Source: a virus
Lineage: Duplodnaviria; Heunggongvirae; Uroviricota; Caudoviricetes
Strand: one strand, 5' to 3'
DNA length: 64,000 nucleotides
IMG/VR virus record: IMGVR_UViG_3300032007_000003
Span: 248,029 to 312,028 of that record
Shown: positions 2,736 to 63,104 of the stretch, piece after piece
How positions within the stretch are numbered: the stretch's first letter is position 1
How the letters are laid out: every line of letters begins with the position of its first letter
Program-made: the position numbers and the translations under genes
The notes under the pieces: generated by a model
What the model was told of the DNA's origin: nothing
Databases searched by the model: none
Seen by the model: the letters and a program-made list of their open reading frames with translations, nothing else

Positions 2736-2818
2736 TGTGGAGTTGGGGAGTAGACAAACCCAAGGGTCTGTAAAACCCTCGCCATTTGGCTTCGTAAGTG
2801 CAAATCTTACCTCCACAA
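2736..2818 (+). tRNA. tRNA-Tyr(GTA), type II
   Basis: Acceptor TGTGGAG/CTCCACA. Anticodon stem AGGGT/ACCCT with loop CTGTAAA. Variable arm GCCATTTGGC. T-arm GTAAG-TGCAAAT-CTTAC. Confidence 0.65.
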
Positions 2819-2828
2819 CAAAATAAAT

Positions 2829-2942: not shown

Positions 2943-3011
2943 AGGCATGTAGCTCAATGGTTAGAGCCTTGGATTTTACCAAGAGATTAGGGTTCGACTC
3001 CCTACGTATCT
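2943..3011 (+). tRNA. tRNA-Lys(TTT)
   Basis: D-arm TAGCTCAATGGTTAGAGC. Anticodon stem CTTGG/CCAAG with loop ATTTTAC. T-arm TAGGGTTCGACTCCCTA. Confidence 0.65.
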
Positions 3012-3039
3012 TTGTTTAAAGGATTCCGATTTTTAACAT

Positions 3040-3113
3040 GGTGGTTGTAGCTCAGTTGGTAGAGTACCAGATTGTGGCTCTGAGGGTCATGGGTTCGAAT
3101 CCCATCTTCCACC
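3040..3113 (+). tRNA. tRNA-His(GTG)
   Basis: An extra G-1 pairs with discriminator C73. D-arm GCTCAGTTGGTAGAGT. Anticodon loop TTGTGGC. T-arm ATGGGTTCGAATCCCAT. Confidence 0.65.
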
Positions 3114-3129
3114 CAAAAAAAAGTTATCA

Positions 3130-3167
3130 AAAAATTTGGAATTTAATTTTTTTTTGTATATCTTTGC
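3130..3167 (+). promoter_or_regulatory. conserved promoter copy upstream of the tRNA-like element
   Basis: AAAATTTGGAATTTAATTTTTTTTTTGTATATCTTTGCA. Confidence 0.5.
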
Positions 3168-3196
3168 AAAGTATTTCATAGGCAACAAATACTAAA

Positions 3197-3323
3197 GGAA
3201 ACATACAGCAAGTATTAATAGGTTATAGCATTAAACTGATAATTTAAGGGTCGTTGGTTCGAGTCCAACCCTCCCCACAAAAAATTAAACTTGGGGAGGT
3301 AGCTAAGATGGATAAATGTTTCC
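3197..3323 (+). ncRNA. permuted tRNA-like element (3' half Ile-GAT-like, then 5' acceptor, closed by GGAAACA...TGTTTCC)
   Basis: Order: motif GGAAACATACAGCAAGTAT; anticodon arm TTAAA-CTGATAA-TTTAA; T-arm GTTGGTTCGAGTCCAAC; 3' acceptor CCTCCCC. A 16-nt loop and the matching 5' acceptor GGGGAGG plus a D-arm-like TAGCTAAGATGG come next, before TGTTTCC. Confidence 0.35.
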
Positions 3324-3328
3324 GAAAA

Positions 3329-3410
3329 TAGGGGAGTAACTGGTAATCGGTTTCCAACTGCATTTGGGGTGCAGGCCTTAGTCGGCATGCGGGTTCGAGT
3401 CCCGTTTCCC
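3329..3410 (+). tRNA. non-canonical type-II tRNA-like gene, paralog of 2829-2909
   Basis: Acceptor AGGGGAG/TTCCCCT. The D-arm ACTGGTAATCGGT and anticodon arm TTCCAA-CTGCAT-TTGGGG match the first copy. T-arm GCGGGTTCGAGTCCCGT. Confidence 0.4.
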
Positions 3411-3465
3411 CTACAAGTTGATGTAAATCAATAAATTACATAAATAGTATAGAGTGTTTTGAATT

Positions 3466-4509
3466 TTGGTTGATTTTTATGAAAGTTCGGCTATATATTA
3501 TATAGAAATGTATAATTATATGGATGAATTAATAAGTAAAATCAGGAAAATGAAATTTGAACAAGGGTGTTCAAATTCTGATATTTCACTTGCGCTAGGT
3601 GTAACAATGGAGAAAATAAAAAGGGTTACTTGCAAGAGTTATGATGAAATACTCAAAAGAAAAGAAACAAAGGAAAAAGCAGAGGAAGAGTTTGTCGAAT
3701 TAGTCAAAAAATATCTTCCACTTTCAAACTCGTTAAATCATTTGTGTAATAACTTAGGTTTAAGAGGTGTGGATGGCTATTATAAGAAGTTAAAAAGAAT
3801 AATAAAAGAATATAACTTGTCAACAGAGCATTTTGGTAGTATTAAGCTATCTAATAATGGCGGTAGTAGAAATATGTACACTGCAATGTCTGATGACGAA
3901 TTCTTTGTAGAAAATTCTAATCGTTATGGAGCATCGATTATCAAAAGACTAGTAGATGGTGGCTATAAGGAATATAAATGCGAGGGAGAAAATTGTGGAA
4001 TTAACGAATGGAATGGAAAGCCATTAAGATTGCAAGTTCATCATATAAATGGAGACCATCACGATAATAGAATAGAAAATTTACAACTATTATGTCCTAA
4101 TTGCCATACACAAACAGATACTTATGCAAGAAACAATATTGCTAAAACAAATAGTTTTAAAATTACAGATAGGGTTAACGAAATATTAACTGGTTCTGAA
4201 AGTTCTTTTAAACCAAAAGATATTGAAGAAATAAAAAAGGAAATATTACCGCCAAAAGAAAAAAAATATTGTCAAAACTGTGGTAAAGAAATAAAAGGTG
4301 ATGGTGAAAAATATTGTTCTCCAGAATGTGCTGAAAAAGCTAGGAGAAAATTTGAAGTCACATCAGAGCAACTTATAAAGGATTTTAAAGAAATTAAGTC
4401 GTTTACTGGTGTTGGAAAAAAATACAATGTTAGTGATAATGCGATAAAAAGAAGAACCAAAAAACTTGGAATATATGATGAAATAAGGCAATTCATCACT
4501 CCAAGGTAA
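3466..4509 (+). CDS. HNH homing endonuclease (paralog 1)
   Basis: 'HHINGDHHDNRIENLQLLCPNCH' is an HNH motif. There are C-terminal CxxC pairs and an N-terminal HTH-like region. The true start is uncertain; the track starts at a TTG. Confidence 0.7.
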   Translation: MVDFYESSAIYYIEMYNYMDELISKIRKMKFEQGCSNSDISLALGVTMEKIKRVTCKSYDEILKRKETKEKAEEEFVELVKKYLPLSNSLNHLCNNLGLRGVDGYYKKLKRIIKEYNLSTEHFGSIKLSNNGGSRNMYTAMSDDEFFVENSNRYGASIIKRLVDGGYKEYKCEGENCGINEWNGKPLRLQVHHINGDHHDNRIENLQLLCPNCHTQTDTYARNNIAKTNSFKITDRVNEILTGSESSFKPKDIEEIKKEILPPKEKKYCQNCGKEIKGDGEKYCSPECAEKARRKFEVTSEQLIKDFKEIKSFTGVGKKYNVSDNAIKRRTKKLGIYDEIRQFITPR

Positions 4510-6404: not shown

Positions 6405-7091
6405 ATGAAAAAAGAAGATTTAAGGAAAACTATAAATAAAAGCATTGGAGAACAAAAAAAAATAATTGAAAGTACTAATTCTATTAGTTATGCTGCAAGA
6501 GAAATTTTAGGCACAGATAGCACACTTGCTAGAACTATAATTAAAGAAATATGTGAAGAACAAGGTTGGGATATACCAACTTGGTATAATAGGGTTAGAT
6601 ATTGTTTACATTGTGGAAAACCAATCATAGGTGGGGATAGTAAAAAGAAATTTTGTAATAGTTCTTGTGCAGCATCATATAATAATAAGTTAAGAAGTAC
6701 AAAAAAACACTATTGTATTAATTGTGGTAAAGAAATAAAACGAGGTAAATTTTGTAACAATACTTGTTGTGCAGAATATAATGCAAAACAATATATTGAA
6801 CGTTGGAAAAATGGGGAGGAAAATGGGTTGAGTGGCAAATATGGAATTTCGCAATATGTTAGACATTATATTTTTGAGAAAAATGATAATAAATGCGAGG
6901 TTTGTGGGAAAAGCTATATAAACCCATATACTGGATTATCTGTACTTCAGATTCATCACAAAGATGGAGATTGTACAAATAATAAGGAAGAGAATCTTCA
7001 ACTATTATGCCCAACGCATCATGCAATGACAGAAAACTTTGGAAGTAGAAATCCAAATGCAACTAGAAAGGATAATAGAATGAGATATTAA
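6405..7091 (+). CDS. HNH homing endonuclease (paralog 2)
   Basis: 'IHHKDGDCTNNKEENLQLLCPTHH' plus multiple CxxC zinc-finger pairs. Confidence 0.7.
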   Translation: MKKEDLRKTINKSIGEQKKIIESTNSISYAAREILGTDSTLARTIIKEICEEQGWDIPTWYNRVRYCLHCGKPIIGGDSKKKFCNSSCAASYNNKLRSTKKHYCINCGKEIKRGKFCNNTCCAEYNAKQYIERWKNGEENGLSGKYGISQYVRHYIFEKNDNKCEVCGKSYINPYTGLSVLQIHHKDGDCTNNKEENLQLLCPTHHAMTENFGSRNPNATRKDNRMRY

Positions 7092-7922: not shown

Positions 7923-8453
7923 GTCTTTTTATATTATAGTATAGCTAGAAGCAAATAAAAAATAAAATAACTGTTAAACGGAAAGTTGAAAAGGTTTCCC
8001 TACACAATAGGTAAAGAAGTTATTCACCTTTACTGAGGGATTATACGCAAAGAGAAAACACCTCGACACACTCTCCTACAATAAAATTGGAAGACACGAA
8101 CCGTAACCGTATACCCAGATGTATACGCATCCGACTTTCCTTGTGAAAGTGGCAAAAGCTTGAATCGAAAATGCAACCGTTGTGTGCTTTGGAGCTTGAT
8201 ACCGAATCAAAAATAAGCAGTGTATGATTCTATGACTTAATTTCGCTTAACAGTAACTTGCGCCTATGGGGGAATAAGTAGACCCGTATGTCTTAGGAAC
8301 ATATGTTGAAATACACGTATCAGTGCAAGTCTGATTAGGCGCACAAAAAAAGGTGCTACGACAGACTGTGGAAGCCAATTTGATAGTGGCGAGTTCGTAG
8401 AACGCTGTAGTTAAATGGAATTTGATAAACAGCCTTTTTATTAATAATTCTTA

Positions 8454-9073: not shown

Positions 9074-9688
9074 ATGAAATGGATAAATAAAAAAAATGAG
9101 TTAGAGCGTTTAATTAATATAGAGCATATTTCTTACGAAGAAATAGGTAGACGTTATGGTGTAAGTGGTCAAGCAGTAAAAAAAGCTGCTCAAAGGTTAG
9201 GAGTTGTAATTCCGCAAAGAAGAGAAATTAATCCAAATGAACATTTTAATAAAGGAACAGCAGAAACTACAAAATGTGTTGAATGTGGTCGTGAATTTAT
9301 AAAATATAAAAGTCATTATGGCAATTTTTGTTCAACAGAATGTGCAAGTAAATATAAACATAAAAAAGCCTATAAAGATTTCTTGGAAAATAATGAGAAA
9401 TATTGTAGGGCTAATTACACACCAAAAGCATTTAAAAAAGAAATATTAGAAGAACAAGGTGGCATTTGTCCATTGTGTAAAGGTAAACCATTTCATAATG
9501 GAAAACCATTGGTCTTTATATTAGACCATATTGATGGTAATGCTGCTAATAACAAAAGAGAAAATCTTAGAATGATTTGTCCAAATTGTGATAGCCAATT
9601 GCCAACTTACAAATCAAAAAATAAAAATGGAGCGAGAAGTTATTATCGCTATCACAAATATGATGAAAACACTAAGATAGGCAAATAA
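9074..9688 (+). CDS. HNH homing endonuclease (paralog 3)
   Basis: 'LDHIDGNAANNKRENLRMICPNCD'. The N-terminal HTH-like 'EIGRRYGVSGQAVKKAAQRLGV' is shared with paralog 4. Confidence 0.7.
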   Translation: MKWINKKNELERLINIEHISYEEIGRRYGVSGQAVKKAAQRLGVVIPQRREINPNEHFNKGTAETTKCVECGREFIKYKSHYGNFCSTECASKYKHKKAYKDFLENNEKYCRANYTPKAFKKEILEEQGGICPLCKGKPFHNGKPLVFILDHIDGNAANNKRENLRMICPNCDSQLPTYKSKNKNGARSYYRYHKYDENTKIGK

Positions 9689-12537: not shown

Positions 12538-13137
12538 ATGAAAGTAGATTGGATTAATGAAAAAGAGACTCTTGAGAAACTTATAAAAGAAGGAGTACCA
12601 TATGAGCGTATTGGAAGACATTATGATGTGTCTGGAACTGCTGTTAAAAAAGCAGCAAAAAAATTGGGTATTGAACTTGAGCAGAAGCGAAAGATAAATC
12701 CTAATGAACATTTTAACAAGGGTACAAGTAAAGTTTGTTACTGTCTGAATTGCGGTAAAGAATTAAGTGGTTCACAAGTTAAATATTGTTCGAATGAATG
12801 CCAAATGGAATATCAAAAAACAAAAAAAATAAACGAATGGAAAGAGCATCCAGAAAGATTTTCATCAGAAAATGGGTATTCATTTATTAGAAATTATCTG
12901 TTAGAGAAGTATAACTATAAATGTGAAAAATGCGGTTGGAATGAAGAAAATCCATACACTCATTCAATACCATTAGAGGTTCATCACATAGATGGCGATT
13001 GCACAAATAATAGAGAAGAAAATCTCCAGTTATTATGCCCTAACCATCATTCTTTGACAGAAAATTTTGGTAGTAGAAATAAAAATAATAGCAAAAGATA
13101 TAAATTAATGGAATATAAAAGAAAATTACGTGAATAA
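12538..13137 (+). CDS. HNH homing endonuclease (paralog 4)
   Basis: 'VHHIDGDCTNNREENLQLLCPNHH'. The N-terminus is near-identical to paralog 3. Confidence 0.7.
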   Translation: MKVDWINEKETLEKLIKEGVPYERIGRHYDVSGTAVKKAAKKLGIELEQKRKINPNEHFNKGTSKVCYCLNCGKELSGSQVKYCSNECQMEYQKTKKINEWKEHPERFSSENGYSFIRNYLLEKYNYKCEKCGWNEENPYTHSIPLEVHHIDGDCTNNREENLQLLCPNHHSLTENFGSRNKNNSKRYKLMEYKRKLRE

Positions 13138-14330: not shown

Positions 14331-14351
14331 CTTTTATAGTATATTAATGTT

Positions 14352-14651
14352 ATGAATGAAGCAATACCGTTTATATCAATATTCATCGTGATGTTTGGTT
14401 TAGCAATCACCATGAGAAAAAACAAGGGGGTAGCGTCAATAGGATGGGTAATCGTGGCTATCGGTGTAGCAATAAACATGATACATTGTTTTATCCTTGG
14501 AAAAATCATACTTGGTATTTTTAATATGATTTTCTCAATACTTGATGGTTTAGCGGCAGTTGCAACATATAAGGCATATAAAGAGAGTCTTCTCGAAAAT
14601 AGGGAAAAGTTTTTAAACGAAATAATGAACTACAAGAAACAAACAATATGA
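14352..14651 (+). CDS. small integral membrane protein
   Basis: Two hydrophobic segments. Confidence 0.4.
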   Translation: MNEAIPFISIFIVMFGLAITMRKNKGVASIGWVIVAIGVAINMIHCFILGKIILGIFNMIFSILDGLAAVATYKAYKESLLENREKFLNEIMNYKKQTI

Positions 14652-15204: not shown

Positions 15205-15294
15205 CCTCCGTTAGTTCATCGGTGAGTGCTCGAAAGAGACGAGAACACTAGTCTTTTAAACTAGGTGTGGTTGGTTCGACTCCAACACGGAGGA
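15205..15294 (+). tRNA. tRNA-Lys(TTT)-like with a 25-nt D-loop carrying an extra hairpin
   Basis: Acceptor CCTCCGT/ACGGAGG (perfect). D-stem GTTC/GAAC encloses ATCGGTGAGTGCTCGAAAGAGACGA. Anticodon stem CTAGT/ACTAG with loop CTTTTAA. T-arm GTTGGTTCGACTCCAAC. Confidence 0.4.
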
Positions 15295-15306
15295 CAATTT
15301 TCATAT

Positions 15307-17627: not shown

Positions 17628-17754
17628 GGTGACGTAGCTCAGTCGGTAGAGCACTAAAAAATCAACGTGTTGCCTCGTGTGCGCAACCCACAGCAAATAT
17701 TATGATGAAAGGCTGTTAACCTAGGGGTCTGTGGTTCGAGTCCACACGTCACCG
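17628..17754 (+). tRNA. interrupted tRNA (about 55-nt insertion after the D-arm carrying the CCACAGCAAATAT motif)
   Basis: 5' GGTGACG-TA-GCTCAGTCGGTAGAGC and 3' TGTGGTTCGAGTCCACA-CGTCACC pair perfectly across 126 nt. An Asn-like CTGTTAA loop lies before the T-arm. Confidence 0.45.
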
Positions 17755-23565: not shown

Positions 23566-23984
23566 CAAACATAATGGGCTTGAAACGGTATAGATTGGCT
23601 GTAGTTTGGTAAGAGACAAGCAGTGGGCATACACTTTCAAATAGCAAAAAAATTAAACGCAGAGAACGTAGATTCTCCTGCTTACGAGTTCGCTATTGCA
23701 GCGTAAACGTGAGCCGAGAGGCTAGGCTCTTAGGAACAGAACATCCTAGCAAATTTTTTTTTGATTAGAAGAAAGGTTCCTGGTTCGAGACCTTGGGAGC
23801 ATTGCTTTAGTTCAAAACGCTTAGGTGTGTTGTAGCTGTTGACAGCTTGGTAGAACATTCTGATAATCAAATGGTGGAATCGGTGACTCTAGTCATCCCC
23901 TAGTGTAATGGCGATACACTTTAATAAAACGTTCTGAGGAAGAAAACCTCTTACCAAAAATTGAAAAGTTTGTATAATCTCTTA

Positions 23985-24027
23985 TGGGACGCAGAACAAG
24001 ACGTGGGTTCAACTCCCACCAGGTCCA
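23985..24027 (+). ncRNA. tRNA-like minihelix
   Basis: GGGAC-GCAGAACAAGA-CGTGGGTTCAACTCCCAC-CAGGTCC. Confidence 0.25.
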
Positions 24028-24045
24028 CTAACAATTAGTTACGTT

Positions 24046-26164: not shown

Positions 26165-26297
26165 TGTTTATATAGGGATATAGCTCAGTGGTAGAGTAAT
26201 TTTGTTGCGATTTAAGCTATACACAATACTAACTTCGGAACGTATTGATGCTTTAACTGATAATGAAACGGTCATTGGTTCGAATCCAGTTGTCCCT
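26165..26297 (+). tRNA. interrupted tRNA-Ile(GAT)-like (about 53-nt insertion between the D-arm and anticodon stem)
   Basis: 5' AGGGATA-TA-GCTCAGTGGTAGAGT; 3' TTTAA-CTGATAA-TGAAA-CGGTC-ATTGGTTCGAATCCAGT-TGTCCCT. The acceptor pairs across 133 nt. Confidence 0.4.
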
Positions 26298-26459
26298 GCG
26301 TACCGTGATTATGATGCTTCCACGTATGATAAGCATCTTACTTATTATAGTAGGTTAACATGCTATAGTAGATTGGAGAAGTTTTGGCTACTAATTGTGG
26401 CTAGTAAAATGAAAGTTTTCATCCAATCGTTTTTTATACGGCTTAATATTTAATTATAT

Positions 26460-27038: not shown

Positions 27039-27303
27039 CATAAAACCTACGATGTAGGCGTAGATATGAAAGCGTGGGCACATTTGTCGCAAGGGTTCAC
27101 ACTAAGAAGAATGTAGGGAGAGATATGTAACAATGTCTATGCAGTACCACTAGCGTATAGAATACTATTTCTTTCGATGCTGCCTAATGGTGTGAGAAGC
27201 ACTCTGTGAAGTTCCTATGAGTGGATAGGTAAAAATAAGTCTTCAGCAGAGGTTAAGCTAGATTCCTGATAAATCATATCCGTAGGTTTTTTAAAGATTG
27301 TGG

Positions 27304-27381
27304 AGTAGAGAAGTAGTTAAACTCGCTAGGCTCATAACCTAGTCCCATGTGGTTCGTGGGTGCAAATCCCACCTCCGCTAC
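27304..27381 (+). tRNA. tRNA(CAT) Met/Ile2-like
   Basis: Anticodon stem CTAGG/CCTAG with loop CTCATAA. T-arm GTGGG-TGCAAAT-CCCAC. Acceptor AGTAGAG/CTCCGCT at 6 of 7 pairs. Confidence 0.45.
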
Positions 27382-28294: not shown

Positions 28295-28334
28295 AAAAAA
28301 TTTGGTTATTTCAATTTTTTTCCATATATTTGCA
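28295..28334 (+). promoter_or_regulatory. conserved promoter copy
   Basis: AAAAAATTTGGTTATTTCAATTTTTTTCCATATATTTGCA. Confidence 0.5.
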
Positions 28335-28380: not shown

Positions 28381-28456
28381 TGGGCATATGGCAGAGTGGT
28401 CGATTGCAACGGCTTCTAGGACCGTAAAAGGCGTGGGTTCGAATCCTACTATGCTC
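28381..28456 (+). tRNA. candidate amber-suppressor tRNA (anticodon CTA)
   Basis: Acceptor GGGCATA/TATGCTC. D-arm GGCAGAGTGGTCGATTGC. The anticodon stem ACGGC/ACCGT (C-A mismatch at 31-39) with loop TTCTAGG gives CTA. An alternative is a 4-bp stem with the 9-nt loop CTTCTAGGA. T-arm GTGGGTTCGAATCCTAC. Confidence 0.4.
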
Positions 28457-28840
28457 ACTACGGCTTGGCGTACCCATATTGGGTGCTGAAATAGGTTAGA
28501 CAAGCACAAGCCACGTAAGAAATGGCAGACATGCAGTAATGCGGTGCGAGGATTAGTCCCTTGCCCTAGTTCCTTGATGGTTAAGAGGATACCTTTATGG
28601 TTGGTATAGGCAAACCTATTTTATGTTATGGCAAGCGAAAATAAAAAGAAAAAAGCAAAGAATTCTTATTTAGCCAATGCTAATAAGACTACTGATAAAT
28701 TGAAGAGAATTAACTTTTACAATAAGATAAATAGAGCAGAAAATAAGTGTAAAGTTAAGGATTGTTAAAGTTGAATTAATCATTTGGTTGGTTCAACTTT
28801 TTTTCGTATCTTTACATCAGAAATTTAAAAACAAGGAAAT

Positions 28841-29347: not shown

Positions 29348-29803
29348 ATGTTAATATTGAGTAAGGTATTTGCCTTTCTCAATTTTTTTTTATATATTTG
29401 CCAAAAATATTGTGTTGTTATGAAGGAAATAGAATACAAACTTGCCAAGAATTTTAATGAGATATTAAATACCAAGAGTAAAACTGATTTTTTTGAGGTG
29501 TTCGTTCTTACTCCTAGCGGTGCAACAGCAAAGAGAAGACTTGCTAGATGTAGGATAGAATATGGCTTTTATTGTAAACGTTTGACACTCGTGTATTTCG
29601 ATACATATGGCAGAATGACTACTAGTTTTACTTATCAAATAAATTCTAATAATAAGATAGATTCGAATGTCTTATATGATTATGAGATTGTAACAACATC
29701 ACGAGATTTCGCTTATAAGCATTGCATGGAAGAGATAAAGAAACAAATAAAGAGATTAAGAGGAAAAGAATGTCAATTGCATAAAACAATATATCATGTC
29801 TAG
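29348..29803 (+). CDS. hypothetical protein
   Basis: 151-aa ORF. The likely start is the MKEIEYK Met at about 29420. Confidence 0.4.
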   Translation: MLILSKVFAFLNFFLYICQKYCVVMKEIEYKLAKNFNEILNTKSKTDFFEVFVLTPSGATAKRRLARCRIEYGFYCKRLTLVYFDTYGRMTTSFTYQINSNNKIDSNVLYDYEIVTTSRDFAYKHCMEEIKKQIKRLRGKECQLHKTIYHV

Positions 29804-29857: not shown

Positions 29858-30349
29858 ATGGAAATAGAAGAATTGGCAAAGAGAGTAGCGTTTGCTCTTA
29901 TGGATAAGAACTATAAGATTGCAACTGCTGAAGAGTGTACTGCTGGACTTGTTGGCGCTGCTATTGCAAGTCAAGACTATGCTCAGAGGTGGTATAAGGG
30001 TACTATTGTTACATATGATGAAGCTAGTGCTTGTAAAGTTTTAGAAGTTCAAGACTACACCATTAAAAGGAATGACTTTGTTAGCACTCAAGTGGTGAGT
30101 CAAATGGCATTAACAACATTATATAGGTTTGATGTAAATATTGCATTGGCAATTAATGGGTATGTTGATGGATATGGAAGTACCAATGTTCCAGCTGGGG
30201 ATGTACAAATCTGTGTAGCAAAATTAGTTGGAAAATCAGTGTCTTTCAAAAATAAGAAGCTGTTAGTTAGAGGAAAGGATAGAGGGAAGAATATTGAAGA
30301 AGCAATTAAGGAGGCTCTTATCCTTATAATGGAATCAATTGTAGATTAA
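29858..30349 (+). CDS. CinA C-terminal domain protein (PncC-like NMN deamidase)
   Basis: 'IATAEECTAGLVGAAIAS ... GTIVTYDEASACKVL ... VVSQMA' matches the CinA_C pattern (AESCTGG...G.V.YS...VS..A). Confidence 0.55.
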   Translation: MEIEELAKRVAFALMDKNYKIATAEECTAGLVGAAIASQDYAQRWYKGTIVTYDEASACKVLEVQDYTIKRNDFVSTQVVSQMALTTLYRFDVNIALAINGYVDGYGSTNVPAGDVQICVAKLVGKSVSFKNKKLLVRGKDRGKNIEEAIKEALILIMESIVD

Positions 30350-30350
30350 T

Positions 30351-30734
30351 ATGGAAGGTTGCGCATTTTGTGATATAGAGAAAAGAATAGATGAATCGAG
30401 AATAATATATCAAGATTCAACTTGGATTGCGATATTAGATGGGTATCCAGTTTCAGAGGGGCATACATTATTAATACCAAAGAGACATTGTGAAACATAT
30501 TTTGATTTAAATTATCTTGAACTTGAATCTCTTGGCGTAACAATTGGTATTGTTAAAAGACTATTGGATACCAAATACCATCCAAATGGATATAATGTGG
30601 GAGTTAACTGTGGTGAGGCTGCTGGTCAAACCATCATGCATTGTCATGTACATATCATACCACGTTATAATGGTGATTGCGAAAATCCTAGAGGTGGTGT
30701 CAGAGGTGTTATACCAAATAAGATGTCATATTAG
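30351..30734 (+). CDS. HIT-family nucleotide hydrolase
   Basis: The histidine triad 'HCHVHIIPR' and an upstream 'HTLLIPKRH'. Confidence 0.65.
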   Translation: MEGCAFCDIEKRIDESRIIYQDSTWIAILDGYPVSEGHTLLIPKRHCETYFDLNYLELESLGVTIGIVKRLLDTKYHPNGYNVGVNCGEAAGQTIMHCHVHIIPRYNGDCENPRGGVRGVIPNKMSY

Positions 30735-31003: not shown

Positions 31004-31078
31004 TGCGGGGTGGCGCAGTTGGTTAGCGCACTAGGGGGCATGCCCTAGAGGTCAATGGTTCGAATCCATTCTCCGCTA
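31004..31078 (+). tRNA. tRNA with CAT in a 6-nt anticodon loop (CTAGGG-GGCATG-CCCTAG)
   Basis: D-arm GCGCAGTTGGTTAGCGC. The anticodon arm has a 6-bp stem and a 6-nt loop. T-arm AATGGTTCGAATCCATT. Acceptor TGCGGGG/CTCCGCT. Confidence 0.4.
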
Positions 31079-31094
31079 CATAAAAGATGAAGAA

Positions 31095-31588: not shown

Positions 31589-32422
31589 ATGAAGAAGTTT
31601 TTAACAATGTTTTCATTCGTCATTATGTTGACGATGAGTATGACAATGACATCTTGTATCGGTTGCACAACAGCAAATGCTGACGAGGAAATTGTTTTGA
31701 TTGACAAGCCTTGGTTCTTAGGTCATGGTGGTGTACAAAGTGAACCAGTTGAAACTGGTCTTGAGTGGATTTGGTGGTCTACTGACACAGAGACTTTCAA
31801 GATTGTGCCTTTTAAGCATCAAGTGGATATGGATGATTTGTTCAGTGATGACAATACTCCGTTGGATTTCCATACCATTATAATTACACAGATTCAAAAG
31901 GGTAAATCACCAATTCTATTGCAGAACTACGGTACTGATTGGTTCAATACCAACCTTTATAATTACTACTGCAATCTTGTGCGAGACCATATTTCACAGC
32001 ATAGTCCATTTGACCTTATGTCGAATCGAGCGATTCTGAATGAGATTGATGCAAAGGTGCTTAAGCAGATGCAGAGTTATGTGGCTGAGTTATCCAAGGA
32101 GAAGGAGTTTCCAGTAACGGTTCGCCAAGTAACTATTGGTAAGGCAATTCCTAACAAGGAGCAGCTTGCGGAAATGAATAAGACAGCGAAGGCAGTGCAA
32201 GCAAAGCAGACTCAAGAGCGACAAGTTGAGGTTGAGTTGGCTCGTGAGAAAGCTGAGAGACAGAGAGCAAAGGCTGATAAGGCTTATAGGGAAGAGCTTG
32301 GTCTTAGTACGCAAGACTTCATTAGTTTGAAGTGGATTGAGACTATCGCAGCTAAGAATGGCGCAAATATTGATGTGATGGTTGGTGGTGGTTCTACCCC
32401 AATGTGGAATATCAAACATTAA
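31589..32422 (+). CDS. lipoprotein with C-terminal coiled coil
   Basis: Signal/lipobox ...MTSCIGC. The C-terminal K/E/Q/R-rich coiled coil is AKAVQAKQTQERQVEVELAREKAERQRAKADKAY. Confidence 0.45.
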   Translation: MKKFLTMFSFVIMLTMSMTMTSCIGCTTANADEEIVLIDKPWFLGHGGVQSEPVETGLEWIWWSTDTETFKIVPFKHQVDMDDLFSDDNTPLDFHTIIITQIQKGKSPILLQNYGTDWFNTNLYNYYCNLVRDHISQHSPFDLMSNRAILNEIDAKVLKQMQSYVAELSKEKEFPVTVRQVTIGKAIPNKEQLAEMNKTAKAVQAKQTQERQVEVELAREKAERQRAKADKAYREELGLSTQDFISLKWIETIAAKNGANIDVMVGGGSTPMWNIKH

Positions 32423-39212: not shown

Positions 39213-39305
39213 TGGCGAGGTGGCAGAGTGGTCTATCGCACTTCTCTCATAAGGAAGCGGGTTTAAACTATACCCACCGTTGGTTCAAATCCAACCCTCG
39301 CTACC
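39213..39305 (+). tRNA. type-II-bodied tRNA with anticodon CAT and encoded CCA
   Basis: Acceptor GGCGAGG/CCTCGCT. The D-arm GGCAGAGTGGTCTATCGCA is shared with the CTA tRNA at 28381. Anticodon stem CTTCT/GGAAG with loop CTCATAA. Long variable arm. T-arm GTTGGTTCAAATCCAAC. It ends A-CCA. Confidence 0.45.
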
Positions 39306-39307
39306 AA

Positions 39308-58093: not shown

Positions 58094-58669
58094 ATGGGAA
58101 GAAAAATTTTAATTATCGTTGATGGTCAATACAGCTTTATTGAGGGTGGCTCTTTAGCAGTAGAGGGGGGCAGAAAAGCATTAGATAATCTTGTAGAGTT
58201 CATAAAGAACCATTATAAAGAATATGATGGTATATTCTTAACTGCCGATTGGCATCCAATTACCCACTGTTCTTTCAAAGATAACGGTGGTATCTGGCCT
58301 CCTCACTGTGTACAGTTCTCACAAGGTGCAGCGATATATCAACCAATTCTTGATGTATTAGATGAATTAAGGATTGATTATGATGTTCTCACCAAGGGTT
58401 GTGATGAAGACCATGAAGAGTATTCAATCTTCAAGAATGTTACTTCTGAGGCATACCTTAAGGCAATGAATAAACACAATGAGATTGGGGTTGTTGACAT
58501 TGCTGGAATTGCTGGTGATTATTGTGTCCTTGATACAATAAAGGATGGACTCATGGAATTTCCAAATACTGAGTTCCATGTTATCAATGAGTGTGTTGCA
58601 TCCATTGATGGTGGAGCAACTTTAAGTAAATTCGTTGATGAAAACGAGAGAGTATTATGGCACGAATAG
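58094..58669 (+). CDS. pncA: nicotinamidase / isochorismatase-family hydrolase (PncA-like)
   Basis: 'ILIIVDGQYSF', 'TADWHPITHCSF' and 'WPPHCVQFSQGAAI' match PncA signature blocks. Confidence 0.7.
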   Translation: MGRKILIIVDGQYSFIEGGSLAVEGGRKALDNLVEFIKNHYKEYDGIFLTADWHPITHCSFKDNGGIWPPHCVQFSQGAAIYQPILDVLDELRIDYDVLTKGCDEDHEEYSIFKNVTSEAYLKAMNKHNEIGVVDIAGIAGDYCVLDTIKDGLMEFPNTEFHVINECVASIDGGATLSKFVDENERVLWHE

Positions 58670-58878
58670 AAGTTGATTTAGCGGAATATCAAGGCATGAG
58701 AAACAAGATTAAGAGCTTGGAATCTGCCTTGAATTCTGTATCTGTTGAGGCTGCTACCAATAAGGAGATTATCGAAAATATCAAAGCTTTGGTAGTTGAC
58801 CTTGAGAAAGAAGGATTTTTAAATCGTTTATTTGCTTGGAAAAATGTCATTAAACCATTTAAAGAATTATTAACATAA

Positions 58879-58916
58879 AATTTTTGGTAGATTTGATATT
58901 TTTTCGTATCTTTGCA
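58879..58916 (+). promoter_or_regulatory. conserved promoter copy
   Basis: TTTTTGGTAGATTTGATATTTTTTCGTATCTTTGCA. Confidence 0.45.
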
Positions 58917-59392
58917 TGGAGAAATTAACATTAGATGTATTTAAGCATTTTAGGTTCTTCTTGAAAAAGAACAAGATATATGACCTATTTATGCGGAATT
59001 TCAGAAGCCAACCATATGAGAAGATTCATAATGTAGATGCATTCTTACCTAATTACATAAACATAATGAGAGAGTATTCTACAACACGTATGGGTAAAGA
59101 ATATCTCAGTGTATATGGAGCGATGTATCTAACGTTTAGGTCTTTTTGTTGGGCGAATAGAGCAGCATATAAGACACCAAATTCATGGAGCAAGTATTGG
59201 GCTACTATTTGTTTAAAATGGGCACTATATTGCATTAGGCATAATATTGAGATATGCACAGACGAAGACCTTGGCAGACTTATAGAATATTGGGATTCAT
59301 GCAAGTGGATTGACATAAGCAAATTATCATTTCAAGATAGAATAGTTATACAACAATTAAAGTGTAAACACAATAATGGAGACATATACTAA
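58916..59392 (+). CDS. hypothetical protein
   Basis: 158-aa ORF. Confidence 0.4.
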   Translation: MEKLTLDVFKHFRFFLKKNKIYDLFMRNFRSQPYEKIHNVDAFLPNYINIMREYSTTRMGKEYLSVYGAMYLTFRSFCWANRAAYKTPNSWSKYWATICLKWALYCIRHNIEICTDEDLGRLIEYWDSCKWIDISKLSFQDRIVIQQLKCKHNNGDIY

Positions 59393-60323
59393 AATAGATA
59401 CAATGCTAAAAAGATATATCTTTGATGGCAAGGAGTGTCCGAATAAGGATTGGTTGAAGTTCAAGAATAAGATTATCCTTGGCGAGTTCTCATTTAATGA
59501 GGCTGAGTATTTGTTCAATTGTCTTTGGGAAGCCACAAGTAAAATAGACGGTACAAATTCCAAGATTGCTTTCTTTCCTTCAGATGGACACATCGAAGTA
59601 GGTGGCAAGACCGACAAAGCTAGTTCACAGCATGGACAGTTTGAAATGCTCCAAGAGATTGGTGAGCGTATCAAGCCACAACTCTGCGCTATGTTCCCCA
59701 AGGAGTCAGCACGTTTTGTTCCAGTTAAGGGAAATGACAATAAGGTACAGTATTATGACGTACATGCTGATTTTAACGAGTATGACGAAAAGACTATGAT
59801 TGCTAAGTTGCAAGCCAAGTTCGATAAGAAGGATACTGTTATATCAGAAGGCTTATATGGTGTGGAACTTGAGGAAGTTCCTATCTACATCTACGGTGAG
59901 TATTTCGGTACTGGTATTCAGAAGTGTGGTTCTCGTTACATTCAGAATGGTAACGGCTTCCGTGTATTCGACATCAAGCAGCAAGGTTGGTGGTTGCCAA
60001 AGGAAAATCGTGATGCAATGTGCAAAGGTCTTGGTCTTGAGCAAGTACCATTCTTGGGCGTTATGACCTTGCGTGACATTGAGGATATGGTTCGTAGTGG
60101 TTTCACCACAAAGTTTGAGGGGGCTGCTGACCCAACCATGATTGAAGAGGGTATTGTAGCACGTCCTATCATTCCTCTTTGTAGTGGTAATGGTAATCGT
60201 ATTATCGTTAAGGTAAAGTATTGCGATTACATTGAGTATGACACTGTTCGCAAACAGTTCTCTGATGAAGAGTTTGCTGAGTTCGATAAGTGGTATCATG
60301 AGAATATTGAAAATAAGAAATAG
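59376..60323 (+). CDS. ATP-dependent RNA ligase (Rnl2-like nucleotidyltransferase)
   Basis: Motif I 'SKIDGTN' (KxDG without the Arg typical of DNA ligases). Motif IV-like 'EGIVARP'. Motif V 'VKVKY'. Confidence 0.5.
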   Translation: METYTKIDTMLKRYIFDGKECPNKDWLKFKNKIILGEFSFNEAEYLFNCLWEATSKIDGTNSKIAFFPSDGHIEVGGKTDKASSQHGQFEMLQEIGERIKPQLCAMFPKESARFVPVKGNDNKVQYYDVHADFNEYDEKTMIAKLQAKFDKKDTVISEGLYGVELEEVPIYIYGEYFGTGIQKCGSRYIQNGNGFRVFDIKQQGWWLPKENRDAMCKGLGLEQVPFLGVMTLRDIEDMVRSGFTTKFEGAADPTMIEEGIVARPIIPLCSGNGNRIIVKVKYCDYIEYDTVRKQFSDEEFAEFDKWYHENIENKK

Positions 60324-60595
60324 TATATGAGAGATTTAACAAGGGTACTATTAAGGTCACTCATGTTTATTTTCCTACTTGTTGGATGTGGTGGTAACAT
60401 CTACTATATGTCTAGCATAACTAGTGATAACCAGTATGCTAGATATAATAGTAGAAGAACCCATTCAACTGTTACGTATGATGAAAATGGATATAATGAG
60501 TACCAACAGCCTCAGTCAGACACAATCAGTATTAATTCAGATGATGACGAGAGAGAATATTTAGATTCAAGACCTACTAGGCAATTTTACTACTG

Positions 60596-61033
60596 ATGAT
60601 ATATGTCGTTTGTAAATTAGGCAATGGGGAAACATTACACACAAATTCCAAATATGGCATTGGAGATTATGTGGAGATAGTTGATGGTGGTCATCAATAT
60701 AGTGGTTATACTGCTGCCTATCAATATTTTTGGGGCGGTGTTGAACGTTATTATATCAATTACAATTTTGATAATGGAGAACCACATAAGGAAGTTCCTA
60801 AATATTGGAAGATTATCAATATGGCACTTGACCCTTCAGGAAGAACCATCTTATACCACATAAGAAGTGTTGATGGGAAAAATAGTGTGGTCGATGAAGG
60901 CGCTATTAAGTTATCTAATTTTCATAGTAGAAACAGAATACCGATTGGTGACGTTAAGATTAATCAACTGCCTTTCAATGGTAATGTTATGCCACATAAA
61001 TGGACAGATAAACTATATAAGGTTCTAACATGA
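60596..61033 (+). CDS. hypothetical protein
   Basis: 145-aa ORF. Confidence 0.4.
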   Translation: MIYVVCKLGNGETLHTNSKYGIGDYVEIVDGGHQYSGYTAAYQYFWGGVERYYINYNFDNGEPHKEVPKYWKIINMALDPSGRTILYHIRSVDGKNSVVDEGAIKLSNFHSRNRIPIGDVKINQLPFNGNVMPHKWTDKLYKVLT

Positions 61034-61455
61034 AACTCATAATTGAAAATTTTGGAACAGTTGAAGTACCTATCAAGATAGGCTATATCGTCACAATTAA
61101 AAAAGGTAGATATGGTTCAGCATTCTATTGGGATTACGTTCAGACATTACCTAAACTGTTAAAGGTTTGTCCATATCAATATGGCGAAGGAATGTACTCA
61201 TTCTATGTTGATGAGCATGGTAATAGAAAAGCGCATGTTCCAAAGGAATGGAAAATTAAACATATTTTTTTCAATGGTGGTAGTATTCATCATCTTTCTC
61301 TTATTGTGGTGTTGGTAAGTAGGTTTAAGGACACATTATCCGTATCCTATATGATGAATCACTCAAACGGTGTATGGGAAGAATATAATTCACCTTTCGA
61401 AGTAATTAACAGAGATAGGAAAGGATTGGAAGAAATTAAAGTGGAAAGGGTTTAA
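61030..61455 (+). CDS. hypothetical protein
   Basis: 141-aa ORF. Possible distant paralog of 61472-61855, with similar W/Y-rich blocks. Confidence 0.4.
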   Translation: MKLIIENFGTVEVPIKIGYIVTIKKGRYGSAFYWDYVQTLPKLLKVCPYQYGEGMYSFYVDEHGNRKAHVPKEWKIKHIFFNGGSIHHLSLIVVLVSRFKDTLSVSYMMNHSNGVWEEYNSPFEVINRDRKGLEEIKVERV

Positions 61456-61471
61456 AATAATAAAAAAAAAC

Positions 61472-61855
61472 ATGCTTGCTAATGTTTTTACATTTCATTG
61501 TATAAAAGACTTTGGTATTGTCTGGAATTACCAATTTCGTGTTGGTGATATTGTAACTGTTAAAAACTGGGGAAATAGATACACATATTACCCATCAGCA
61601 CACAATTATTTTAAAAGAAAACTTGGTATTCCTTATTATAATTCTGATGAATATTACAGTTGGAAACCAAATGACCTCTTCAAAATTAGAGCGATTGCTA
61701 GGCATCATAGGATGGAAAATAGGCTTCTTGCACTTATTGAAGATAGAAATAAAAGAGGAGTAATAATCAACATGGATGGTTTGAGTTTAGCCAAACAATA
61801 CCCATTAAGAAAGGACGAGAAATTAAATAAAAACATTGAAATAATAAAATATTAA
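61472..61855 (+). CDS. hypothetical protein
   Basis: 127-aa ORF. Confidence 0.4.
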   Translation: MLANVFTFHCIKDFGIVWNYQFRVGDIVTVKNWGNRYTYYPSAHNYFKRKLGIPYYNSDEYYSWKPNDLFKIRAIARHHRMENRLLALIEDRNKRGVIINMDGLSLAKQYPLRKDEKLNKNIEIIKY

Positions 61856-61859
61856 AAAA

Positions 61860-63104
61860 ATGGGAAAAATTAAGCAAATTGTTACGCATTTTACTGACAA
61901 TGACCTCTACACTTTTACGTGCCAGTATTACATTTTACACACGTATCCACGTGCAGAGGTGAGGTATGCATTCTTTGACCGTAATCACACTCGTTATCCG
62001 AAAGGATTTGGCGAGTTGCTTCAAGAGCAGATTAACGGCATGAAGGATGTTATTATCACAGAGGAAGAGATTGCCTTTATGAAAAGAAAAATTTACTTCC
62101 TTCCAGATTGGTATTACAATTTCCTTCGTGGATTCAGATTCAATCCCTCTGAGGTGCATATTTCACAAGACCAAAGTGGCTACTTATCAATCGTTATTGA
62201 GGGTAAATGGTATTCCACTATTATGTGGGAAATGCCAATTCTTTCTACAATATCTGAATTGATGCATGTCATCAATGGTGATATTGAGAAAGTGGATTGG
62301 GAAGCAGAATGGAACAGAGCATACGATAAGTGTTTTAAATGCCTTGAAAATGGTATTAGGGTTTCAGACATGGGCACTAGGAGAAGGTTTTGTTTCTATA
62401 ATCAACAAGTGGTTCTTGAGGCTTTTAAGCAAGCAAGACATGACATTGATTTGAAATCAGTTGCAAACGTTAGGACTGGAGATTTCATAGGTACATCAAA
62501 TGTTTGGTTTGCCAAGGGATTTGACCTTACACCTATTGGAACAATGTCCCATCAGTTATGTTCATTTGAAGAGTGTGTAAGTGGTGTGTTCGAGTGTAAC
62601 CATCAGTTAATGAAAAAGTGGTCAGACGTGTATTCTGGAGACCTTGGTATTTTCCTTCCAGATTGTTTTGGAAGTAAGGTATTCCTTTCCAATTTCTCTA
62701 AGGACATGGCTAAGATGTTCGATGGTATCCGAATTGACAGTGGTGATGAAAGGGAGGAAACCGAAAAGATGATTGAGAAATATCGTTCTCTTGGTATTGA
62801 CCCATCTACAAAGTCAATTGTTTATTCAAATGCCCTTACCATCGATAAAGCCATAGAACTTCATGAGTGGCTTGACGGACGTATGAAAGATTCATATGGT
62901 ATTGGTACGCACCTCATGGCTGATGTGACTAACACAGAAACCAAAGAAAAGTTCCCATACTCAAATATTGTTATCAAGCTTGTTGGTATGAGAATAACAG
63001 AGTCTCGTGAATGGCATGATTGTATTAAGCTGTCAAACGACAAGGGTAAAACATTGGGTGATAAGACTAAGTGTGAATATCTAGTGAAACAAATAGGGGA
63101 ATAA
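61860..63104 (+). CDS. pncB: nicotinate phosphoribosyltransferase
   Basis: N-terminal 'FTDNDLYTFTCQYYIL' corresponds to the NAPRTase 'TDxYKxTM' block. 414 aa. Confidence 0.7.
   Translation: MGKIKQIVTHFTDNDLYTFTCQYYILHTYPRAEVRYAFFDRNHTRYPKGFGELLQEQINGMKDVIITEEEIAFMKRKIYFLPDWYYNFLRGFRFNPSEVHISQDQSGYLSIVIEGKWYSTIMWEMPILSTISELMHVINGDIEKVDWEAEWNRAYDKCFKCLENGIRVSDMGTRRRFCFYNQQVVLEAFKQARHDIDLKSVANVRTGDFIGTSNVWFAKGFDLTPIGTMSHQLCSFEECVSGVFECNHQLMKKWSDVYSGDLGIFLPDCFGSKVFLSNFSKDMAKMFDGIRIDSGDEREETEKMIEKYRSLGIDPSTKSIVYSNALTIDKAIELHEWLDGRMKDSYGIGTHLMADVTNTETKEKFPYSNIVIKLVGMRITESREWHDCIKLSNDKGKTLGDKTKCEYLVKQIGE

Follow-up and report, generated by a model that had tools for sequence, protein, structure and literature searches.

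Amber suppressors built on serine tRNAs are known from bacteria and phages alike: supD of E. coli is a tRNA-Ser in which the CGA anticodon has become CUA, and psu1+ of phage T4 is a mutant T4 tRNA-Ser, both of them serine-inserting. Stop-codon suppressor tRNAs are also the handle by which gut phages switch their genetic code, and overlooking them leads to mis-annotated phage genomes. CUA suppressors occur in TAG-recoded gut phages, including Lak, crAss-like, Garnet, Topaz and other phages (Borges et al., bioRxiv 10.1101/2021.08.26.457843), and they accompany TAG recoding in jumbo phages too (PMC13037316). A release factor RF2, a synthetase and a depletion of TAG stops are frequent, not obligatory, in recoded phages, and standard-code relatives of recoded phages may carry suppressors as well (Borges et al.). 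In clade 8 of the Zeta crAss-like phages a CUA suppressor is conserved without suppression sites, and a role in weakening the host or in anti-defence was proposed (PMC12386605). The cultivated megaphage G encodes a Sup-UUA suppressor tRNA together with a tmRNA (PMC12484599).

Here we describe a CUA tRNA gene from a 64,000-nt stretch of phage DNA (the window, meaning the whole stretch that was analysed) and its homologs in related genomes. It extends the known cases to a clade of ~410-kb phages, probably of Bacteroidota, that keep a conserved suppressor and yet use TAG as an ordinary stop codon, and it bears on the purpose of seemingly idle suppressors, which may be a step that precedes recoding, a means of sabotaging the host or an anti-defence measure.

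Genomic setting and probable host

The window belongs to a phage genome of ~412 kb (412,231 bp; ENA ERZ27256887 k141_847008), has a GC content of 35% and carries every gene on one strand. It covers a translation and RNA-repair region with ~40 tRNAs and a tmRNA (ARAGORN reported 42 tRNA-like genes on the + strand), along with genes for a CCA-adding enzyme, an RNA ligase, CinA, a HIT protein, NAD salvage, DHFR and four HNH homing endonucleases; RtcB, SSB, NAD synthase and a second RNA ligase are encoded in the flanks. No close relative was found among GenBank phages by megablast, and tblastn against the same phages returned only distant matches (26-40%), to LR745206, LR756501 (634 and 735 kb) and Bacteroides phages. 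Sister genomes of 409,537, 412,753 and 412,362 bp were recovered from IMG/VR and JGI, with a more distant relative of 401 kb.

Beyond the window, the sister genomes carry small and auxiliary genes downstream, and upstream they encode DnaK, DnaJ-like and IF3-like proteins followed by a virion module. This module contains tail fibres with Peptidase_S74 chaperone domains (1,151 and 625 aa) and BACON proteins; its block of large proteins (2,023-2,310, ~1,000, ~1,000, 700-820, 301-308, ~1,200 and ~780 aa) is intact and begins in the relatives with a gp25-like baseplate protein. Because walking outward recovered genes for a gp25-like baseplate wedge, a gp13-like neck protein, gp32-like and UvsX-like proteins, NrdD and DnaB, the group is considered distantly T4-like.

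Auxiliary genes lie at 58094..63104 and 29858..30734 of the window and in loci L007, L009, L085/L088 and L093. A near-complete NAD salvage set (NAPRTase, nicotinamidase-like, NMNAT/NadD-like, NAD synthase, NADAR, CinA/PncC and NUDIX proteins) and an RNA repair set (RtcB, two RNA ligases, the CCA-adding enzyme and HIT) are encoded, and further auxiliary proteins comprise DnaK, DnaJ-like, IF3-like and YqeY-like proteins and PARG. The four paralogous HNH homing endonucleases lie among the tRNA genes (3508..4509, 6405..7091, 9074..9688 and 12538..13137), and a search with this family returned array-proximal loci only; further endonucleases, of the DUF723, GIY-YIG and HNH_3/NUMOD4 types, occur in flanking sequence and among the virion genes of the sister genomes. 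No exact repeat of at least 16 nt with at least four occurrences was detected, and the motifs of the small-protein family were weak.

The most repeated motif of the window in a k-mer enrichment was TTTG-N17-23-TAnnTTTG, with 26 copies on the + strand and one on the - strand (for example at 571, 890, 3135, 28301 and 63158), which we take to be the Bacteroidota sigma-A promoter consensus. Its distribution indicates the host phylum and transcription of the region by the host RNA polymerase. The earlier note, made from the letters of the window, had guessed at a Bacteroidota host; the promoter motif, the BACON domains and the Bacteroidota-type D-arm of tRNA-Ser described below agree with that guess, and the host phylum is probably Bacteroidota.

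Structure and register of the CUA tRNA

The tRNA gene occupies 28382..28457 on the + strand (76 nt to A73, without an encoded CCA), with its CTA anticodon, which reads UAG, at 28416..28418. It is supported by ARAGORN, by the Rfam tRNA model RF00005 and by covariation among four homologs: ARAGORN called a tRNA with anticodon cta at 28382..28458, and RF00005 scored 49.3 bits, above its gathering score of 29, in a full-length match to 28382..28457 (E = 1.6e-7 for the entire window, 4e-10 locally). The earlier note had recognised a real tRNA here and placed it one base too early, at 28381..28456. In the covariance-model alignment CUA takes tRNA positions 34-36 within the loop UUCUAGG, on a 5-bp anticodon stem (ACGGC/ACCGU) with a C31.A39 mismatch, so that ARAGORN and the covariance model arrive at the register that had been proposed, CTA at positions 34-36 with stem ACGG(C)/(A)CCGT and loop TTCTAGG. 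A better-supported fold with a sense anticodon, for which the earlier note had allowed, was not found in any alternative register of 28382..28457, and the two callers agree on CUA.

The acceptor stem (GGGCAUA/UAUGCUC) forms an intact 7 bp including G2.U71 and the T-arm is canonical (GUGGG-UUCGAAU-CCUAC, with a 5-bp stem), both as previously described. The D-arm reads GCAG-AGUGGUCGA-UUGC, with a 9-nt D-loop that contains G18G19; the variable region has 7 nt, U33 is present and the discriminator base is A73. All of the features of a canonical elongator tRNA (7-bp acceptor, 5-bp T stem, G18G19, UUCRAnY and U33) are present in the molecule. The single-sequence thermodynamic fold is indistinct (z = -1.0), with a minimum free energy structure that is not a cloverleaf, and is uninformative; the identity of the gene as a tRNA rests on the covariance model and on comparison. 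No close paralogs were found among the other tRNAs of the window. The T-arm is common to three of them and so is non-diagnostic, and the likeness of the D-arm to that of the long-armed CAU tRNA at 39214..39306, noted earlier, amounts to 17 identical positions of 19.

Several other RNA genes of the array are unusual in their own right. A class II body with a Met/Ile-type anticodon is uncommon, and the window has two with CAU: one at 39214..39306, with a Ser-type D-arm, A73, G1.U72 and an encoded CCA, and one at 27299..27381, which is paralogous to the phage's tRNA-Tyr (2736..2819) and has U1 mismatched with U72. Rfam also found two longer tRNAs, of 127 nt (17628..17754) and 125 nt (26174..26298), that default ARAGORN missed; its intron search read the first as a tRNA-Asn(GUU) interrupted by 54 nt and the second as a tRNA-Arg(GCG) interrupted by 52 nt, so both are tRNA genes with an intron. 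Anticodon loops of 6 nt occur at 2943..3012 and 31004..31079, for which ARAGORN gave the 2-base anticodons tt and ca although the Rfam scores are good (45.6 and 51.4 bits); in the latter tRNA the anticodon arm is a palindrome (CUAGGG-GGCAUG-CCCUAG) and U1 and U72 are mismatched, and its ortholog in locus L004 (11491..11567) was read as ACA. The tmRNA lies at 23576..24030 (Rfam, 56.9 bits), and its L004 ortholog (3092..3447) has the ARAGORN tag peptide AENVDSPAYEYAIAA*. Two ARAGORN calls, tRNA-Leu(aag) at 32316..32411, which falls within the Band_7-family ORF 31589..32422, and tRNA-Ser(aga) at 15205..15295, have no Rfam support and are probably false positives.

Conservation among related phages

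Homologs of the CUA tRNA were found in four related loci. The copy in the closest sister genome (L003) is identical, with differing flanks, and the homologs in L004, in which CinA is 85% identical, L010 and L018 have the same D-arm and T-arm. CUA is accordingly invariant in five genomes, the window included, across 85-92% CinA identity and beyond. When four homologs are aligned, the share of paired cells in the cloverleaf is 95.2%, compared with 33-54% in slid controls, and compensatory changes occur at five pairs (3:70, 5:68, 12:23, 28:42 and 29:41), a covariation statistic limited by the four sequences available. CUA, G1-C72, G2.U71 and A73 are unchanged throughout this alignment, position 31:39 is mismatched in three of the four homologs, and the variable region has 6-8 nt in three of the four lineages, including that of the window, and 16 nt in L004.

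As judged from these comparisons, the CUA tRNA is under selection and is neither a chance structure nor a decaying gene. The anticodon has remained fixed while its own stem covaries, as a constraint on decoding would predict, and the tRNA is very likely a functional UAG decoder kept by selection. The earlier proposal of an amber-suppressor tRNA is borne out as far as sequence can carry it, since CUA stays invariant while the anticodon, D and acceptor stems covary.

A serine scaffold without serine identity marks

The 19-nt D-arm was searched in GTDB, with one genome per species, and returned at least 120 loci, mostly from Bacteroidota. Among the matches listed, the exact D-arm in cellular genomes belonged to tRNA-Ser in 116 of 116 tRNAs, with the anticodons UGA (110), CGA (3), GGA (2) and GCU (1). 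The L004 ortholog has the anticodon arm GGCAGU-CUCUAAA-ACUGU, that of Bacteroidota tRNA-Ser(UGA) apart from the anticodon. Because the D-arm (116/116 listed) and the arms of the L004 copy are of serine type, the CUA tRNA family derives from a Bacteroidota-type tRNA-Ser. Such an origin fits a CUA anticodon because SerRS ignores the anticodon, relying on the long variable arm (PMC7373986).

The present-day members of the family have lost much of what marks a serine tRNA. Among the matches listed, cellular tRNA-Ser with the exact D-arm has G73 in 110/115, G2-C71 in 115/115, A3-U70 in 113/115 and a variable arm of 16-19 nt in 115/115. All members of the CUA family have A73 and G2.U71, with neither G73 nor G2-C71, and a variable 3:70 pair; the long variable arm is absent from the window tRNA (7 nt) and is kept only in the L004 ortholog (16 nt). 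The identity check called for by the earlier note came out divided, with a serine-type scaffold by D-arm and with G73, G2-C71 and the long arm all missing. Serine insertion by the window tRNA is doubtful because A73, G2.U71 and a short variable region replace the serine marks.

By the identity rules of E. coli, A73 combined with U35/A36 on a Ser/Tyr-type scaffold would suit TyrRS; LysRS and GlnRS are also enzymes that often mischarge amber suppressors. The anticodon arm of the window lineage is odd, with the C31.A39 mismatch and with G37 following A36; given this arm, the 7-nt variable region and the lack of serine marks, the window tRNA might be a poor substrate or uncharged. The family is a natural case of a serine tRNA scaffold that acquired a new anticodon and afterwards shed the marks of serine identity, which bears on the evolution of tRNA identity and on the engineering of orthogonal suppressors in Bacteroides.

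Related scaffolds were seen with other anticodons. Locus L059 has a tRNA-Cys (GCA, U73; 14350..14426) with the same Ser-type D-arm and the short variable region UAUCAUC of the L018 CUA tRNA, and locus L015 has a class II tRNA with a CCA anticodon (8286..8369) whose anticodon arm and T-arm are of the L004 type. It seems that these phage arrays use Ser-type scaffolds repeatedly, with different anticodons.

Promoter-like site and 3' element

A promoter-like site of the Bacteroidota type (TTTG, 20 nt, TATATTTG) lies at 28301..28332 on the + strand and ends 50 nt before the tRNA. It is kept in L003 and absent in L004, L010 and L018, where the CUA tRNA comes immediately after the preceding gene.

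Directly 3' of the tRNA, at 28458..28625 (+ strand), lies a conserved structured non-coding element of ~165 nt. Its copies in L003 (8674..8840), L004 (8070..8235) and L018 (19856..20014) share 85-88% nucleotide identity, and it occurs as a single copy, adjoining the CUA tRNA each time, in four genomes within 3.65 Mb of phage loci; L010 has the CUA tRNA without it. RNAalifold predicted several hairpins, with 34 pairs and 3 compensatory changes, and comparison with Rfam gave chance-level scores only, with no match. Judged by its position, the element may be linked to the CUA tRNA.

TAG as a stop codon

Within the window, + strand ORFs of at least 100 codons end in TAA (46), TGA (14) or TAG (7), and treating TAG as sense yields no larger gain than treating TGA as sense. 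The earlier observation that the window genes have no in-frame TAG under the standard code was confirmed. Two sister genomes were then walked outward with concatenated end-protein queries, sampling 56,973..207,175 of the 412,753-bp genome (36%) and 64,161..219,614 of the 409,537-bp genome (38%), that is, ~150 kb per sister genome in addition to the window's own 84 kb, with gene sets that were simple ORF picks rather than the output of a trained caller. The loci with replication and neck genes (L336 and L349) come from a related phage of 410.8 kb that may or may not carry a suppressor.

ORF coverage was the same with TAG as stop or as sense at all clade loci, and reached 0.90-0.99 in the virion loci. 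No TAG-interrupted gene was found in the sampled 36-38% of the two sister genomes or in the window's 84 kb, the baseplate and tail-fibre module included: ~17 large genes of this module in two lineages (~8,000-9,600 codons each, ~40 kb) have zero in-frame TAG. When 633 clade proteins were compared with all phage loci by tblastn, an internal TAG opposite a sense codon was observed 0 times in ~1.0 million aligned residues at 40% identity or more, a total that is redundant across relatives. This alignment test works because it detected TGA opposite Trp in unrelated contigs.

The unrelated IMG/VR contigs in question (L012, L013, L035 and L037) have the in-frame TGA in homologs of the HNH endonucleases, which suggests that they represent TGA-to-Trp recoded phages. 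A CUA tRNA unrelated to the present family occurs in L012 (13134..13207), and another in L053 (12659..12736).

Genes ending in TAG make up 22/166, 20/152 and 9/108 in three genomes (8-13%), with no consistently closer backup stop after TAG in these genomes. The stop codons turn over among orthologs, TAG exchanging with TAA and TGA and being gained in suppressor-bearing lineages: HIT ends in TAG in the window and L003 and in TAA in L004, and CinA in TAA in the window and L003 and in TAG in L004. Two arrangements in the window were considered as possible read-through fusions and rejected as chance. The TAG-ended ORF 29348..29803 is in frame with CinA, and the RNA ligase 59376..60323, also ending in TAG, is in frame with 60327..60596; in each case the downstream gene has its own ATG and the domains are independent. 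Neither arrangement is conserved in the sister genomes, where the stops turn over.

Release factor and class I synthetase motifs (GGQ, KMSKS) were absent from 26 clade loci, no release-factor or synthetase Pfam family was found in the window, and RF2 and synthetases were absent from ~160 kb. TAG is therefore an ordinary stop codon throughout the sampled sequence, and this genome region should be annotated with the standard code despite the suppressor. The earlier note had placed any TAG recoding elsewhere in the genome; the sampled 36-38% and the 84 kb read cleanly in the standard code and lend this no support. Its proposed scan for ORFs interrupted only by TAG is complete for that part and came back empty; in lineages with the CUA tRNA, the genes for the head (major capsid and portal), terminase, sheath and lysis lie in the other ~62%. 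Efficient suppression would lengthen the products of 8-13% of the sampled genes; since TAG is not avoided, the activity would be weak or limited in time.

Proposed role and alternative explanations

We propose, with a probability of about one half, that this is a suppressor in a standard-code phage that acts in trans on UAG termination, a reading favoured because the virion module is unrecoded and TAG stops are common. In this proposal, selection would have kept a UAG-reading tRNA in a clade of ~400-412 kb, distantly T4-like phages with Bacteroidota as the probable host. The tRNA would have arisen from a Bacteroidota-type tRNA-Ser, in which a change to CUA was possible because SerRS is blind to the anticodon, and would subsequently have lost its serine marks, with G73 replaced by A73, G2-C71 by G2.U71 and, in the window lineage, the long variable arm shortened. 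Host RNA polymerase may transcribe it early, starting at a host-type promoter that the gene has for itself inside the tRNA array. The transcript would be trimmed and completed with CCA by a CCA-adding enzyme of the phage or the host; once a host synthetase has charged it, the tRNA would compete with release factor 1 at UAG. The outcome would be partial UAG read-through in trans during infection, rather than the decoding of recoded late genes, with host messages as possible targets, such that the host or its defences are weakened, or with tolerance of amber mutations as the benefit. The role of the tRNA is the weakest step of this explanation, the host-directed function being a published hypothesis and not a demonstrated mechanism (PMC12386605).

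An unlikely though serious alternative is a code switch, in which the CUA tRNA decodes in-frame TAG in a few late genes, such as head and lysis genes, within the unsampled 62%. Suppressor tRNAs of gut phages are strongly tied to TAG recoding (Borges et al.), likewise those of jumbo phages (PMC13037316), recoding can be restricted to a portion of a genome (Borges et al.), and the published suppressors lie in standard-code regions and are expressed ahead of the recoded structural and lysis genes (Borges et al.); the Bacteroidota host, the 35% GC and the conservation of the tRNA would all fit such a setting. However, published recoded stops cluster in structural genes (Borges et al.), and the ~17 baseplate and tail-fibre genes here have none. 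TAG is moreover undepleted as a stop (8-13%) and has been gained in suppressor-bearing lineages, and neither RF2 nor a synthetase was found in ~160 kb.

The loss of three serine marks, the 31:39 mismatch in three of four homologs and the odd variable region of 6-8 nt might instead point to an RNA that does not decode at all: a regulatory, decoy or processing element, perhaps working with the 165-nt element, or an uncharged tRNA that competes with a host factor or titrates it. The conserved structured element attached to the gene, and the lack of a recoded gene in the sample, would suit such a role. We nevertheless consider it improbable, as the features required on the ribosome are kept (7-bp acceptor, G18G19, UUCGAAU, U33 and a 7-nt loop with invariant CUA), invariant anticodon bases on a covarying stem are what a decoding constraint predicts, and L010 carries the tRNA without the 3' element. 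Similarly improbable, and speculative, is an identity-switched suppressor, a serine scaffold charged by another host synthetase or by a phage factor and working with the 165-nt RNA, which would serve either to recode TAG in a few late genes of the unsampled part, inserting an unusual amino acid other than Gln, or to sabotage UAG termination in the host in a controlled manner. The chance that the gene is a sense tRNA folded wrongly, a tRNA-Ser whose anticodon mutated recently, or a pseudogene is very small: the single-sequence fold is not a cloverleaf and doubtful ARAGORN calls do exist in this array, such as 32316..32411 inside an ORF and without Rfam support, but two independent callers give one register, no register offers a sense anticodon, and CUA is kept in five genomes with compensatory changes. 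Smaller still is the chance of a pyrrolysine tRNA, which was suggested by the ARAGORN label only, the program naming any CUA tRNA 'Pyl'. tRNA-Pyl has a tiny D-loop, a 3-nt variable loop, a 6-bp anticodon stem and a pyl gene cluster, whereas in the present tRNA the D-loop is normal (9 nt, including G18G19), the T-loop is canonical, the anticodon stem has 5 bp, the variable region has 7 nt and the D-arm is of serine type, and the window has no Pyl-type synthetase family or pyl genes. Both the artefact and the tRNA-Pyl readings are essentially excluded.

Comparison with known suppressor systems

The locus shares with the recoded gut and jumbo phages a CUA tRNA that lies in a standard-code region, in or near a tRNA cluster, in a genome of low GC and with a host from a standard-code gut phylum. 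It differs from these phages, whose structural and lysis genes contain in-frame TAG and some of which encode RF2: here no in-frame TAG was found in the 36-38% sampled, virion module included, no release factor was found in the sequence searched, and TAG is a common stop. In recoded gut phages TAG is moreover predicted to encode Gln, whereas the window tRNA has a Ser-type body. The likeness to clade 8 of the Zeta crAss-like phages lies in a suppressor that is kept across diverged genomes with no sites detected (here in the sampled 36-38%). However, in some Zeta crAss-like genomes TAG stops are rare and a backup stop follows soon after, whereas TAG ends 8-13% of the genes here without a consistent backup; the Zeta crAss-like phages, at ~100-190 kb, also belong to a different family and have a different tRNA body.

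Like phage G, the present phage is huge and has its own tRNA set, a tmRNA and a suppressor, but the suppressor of phage G is an ochre (UUA) tRNA, unrelated to the window's CUA tRNA, in a phage of a Firmicute host. The comparison with supD and psu1+ is of another kind, as they too combine a tRNA-Ser body with CUA and the window phage is distantly T4-like. With 16 nt of variable arm and an anticodon arm of Ser type, the L004 ortholog resembles a supD-type suppressor, whereas the family as a whole departs from supD and psu1+, which retain G73, G2-C71 and the long arm; the CUA family has A73 and G2.U71, and the long arm was lost in three of four lineages. Suppressor tRNAs of huge phages, also without recoding, are already published, and the points of interest specific to the present family are a serine scaffold stripped of its serine marks, a strictly conserved G2.U71 pair and the ~165-nt RNA on its 3' side.
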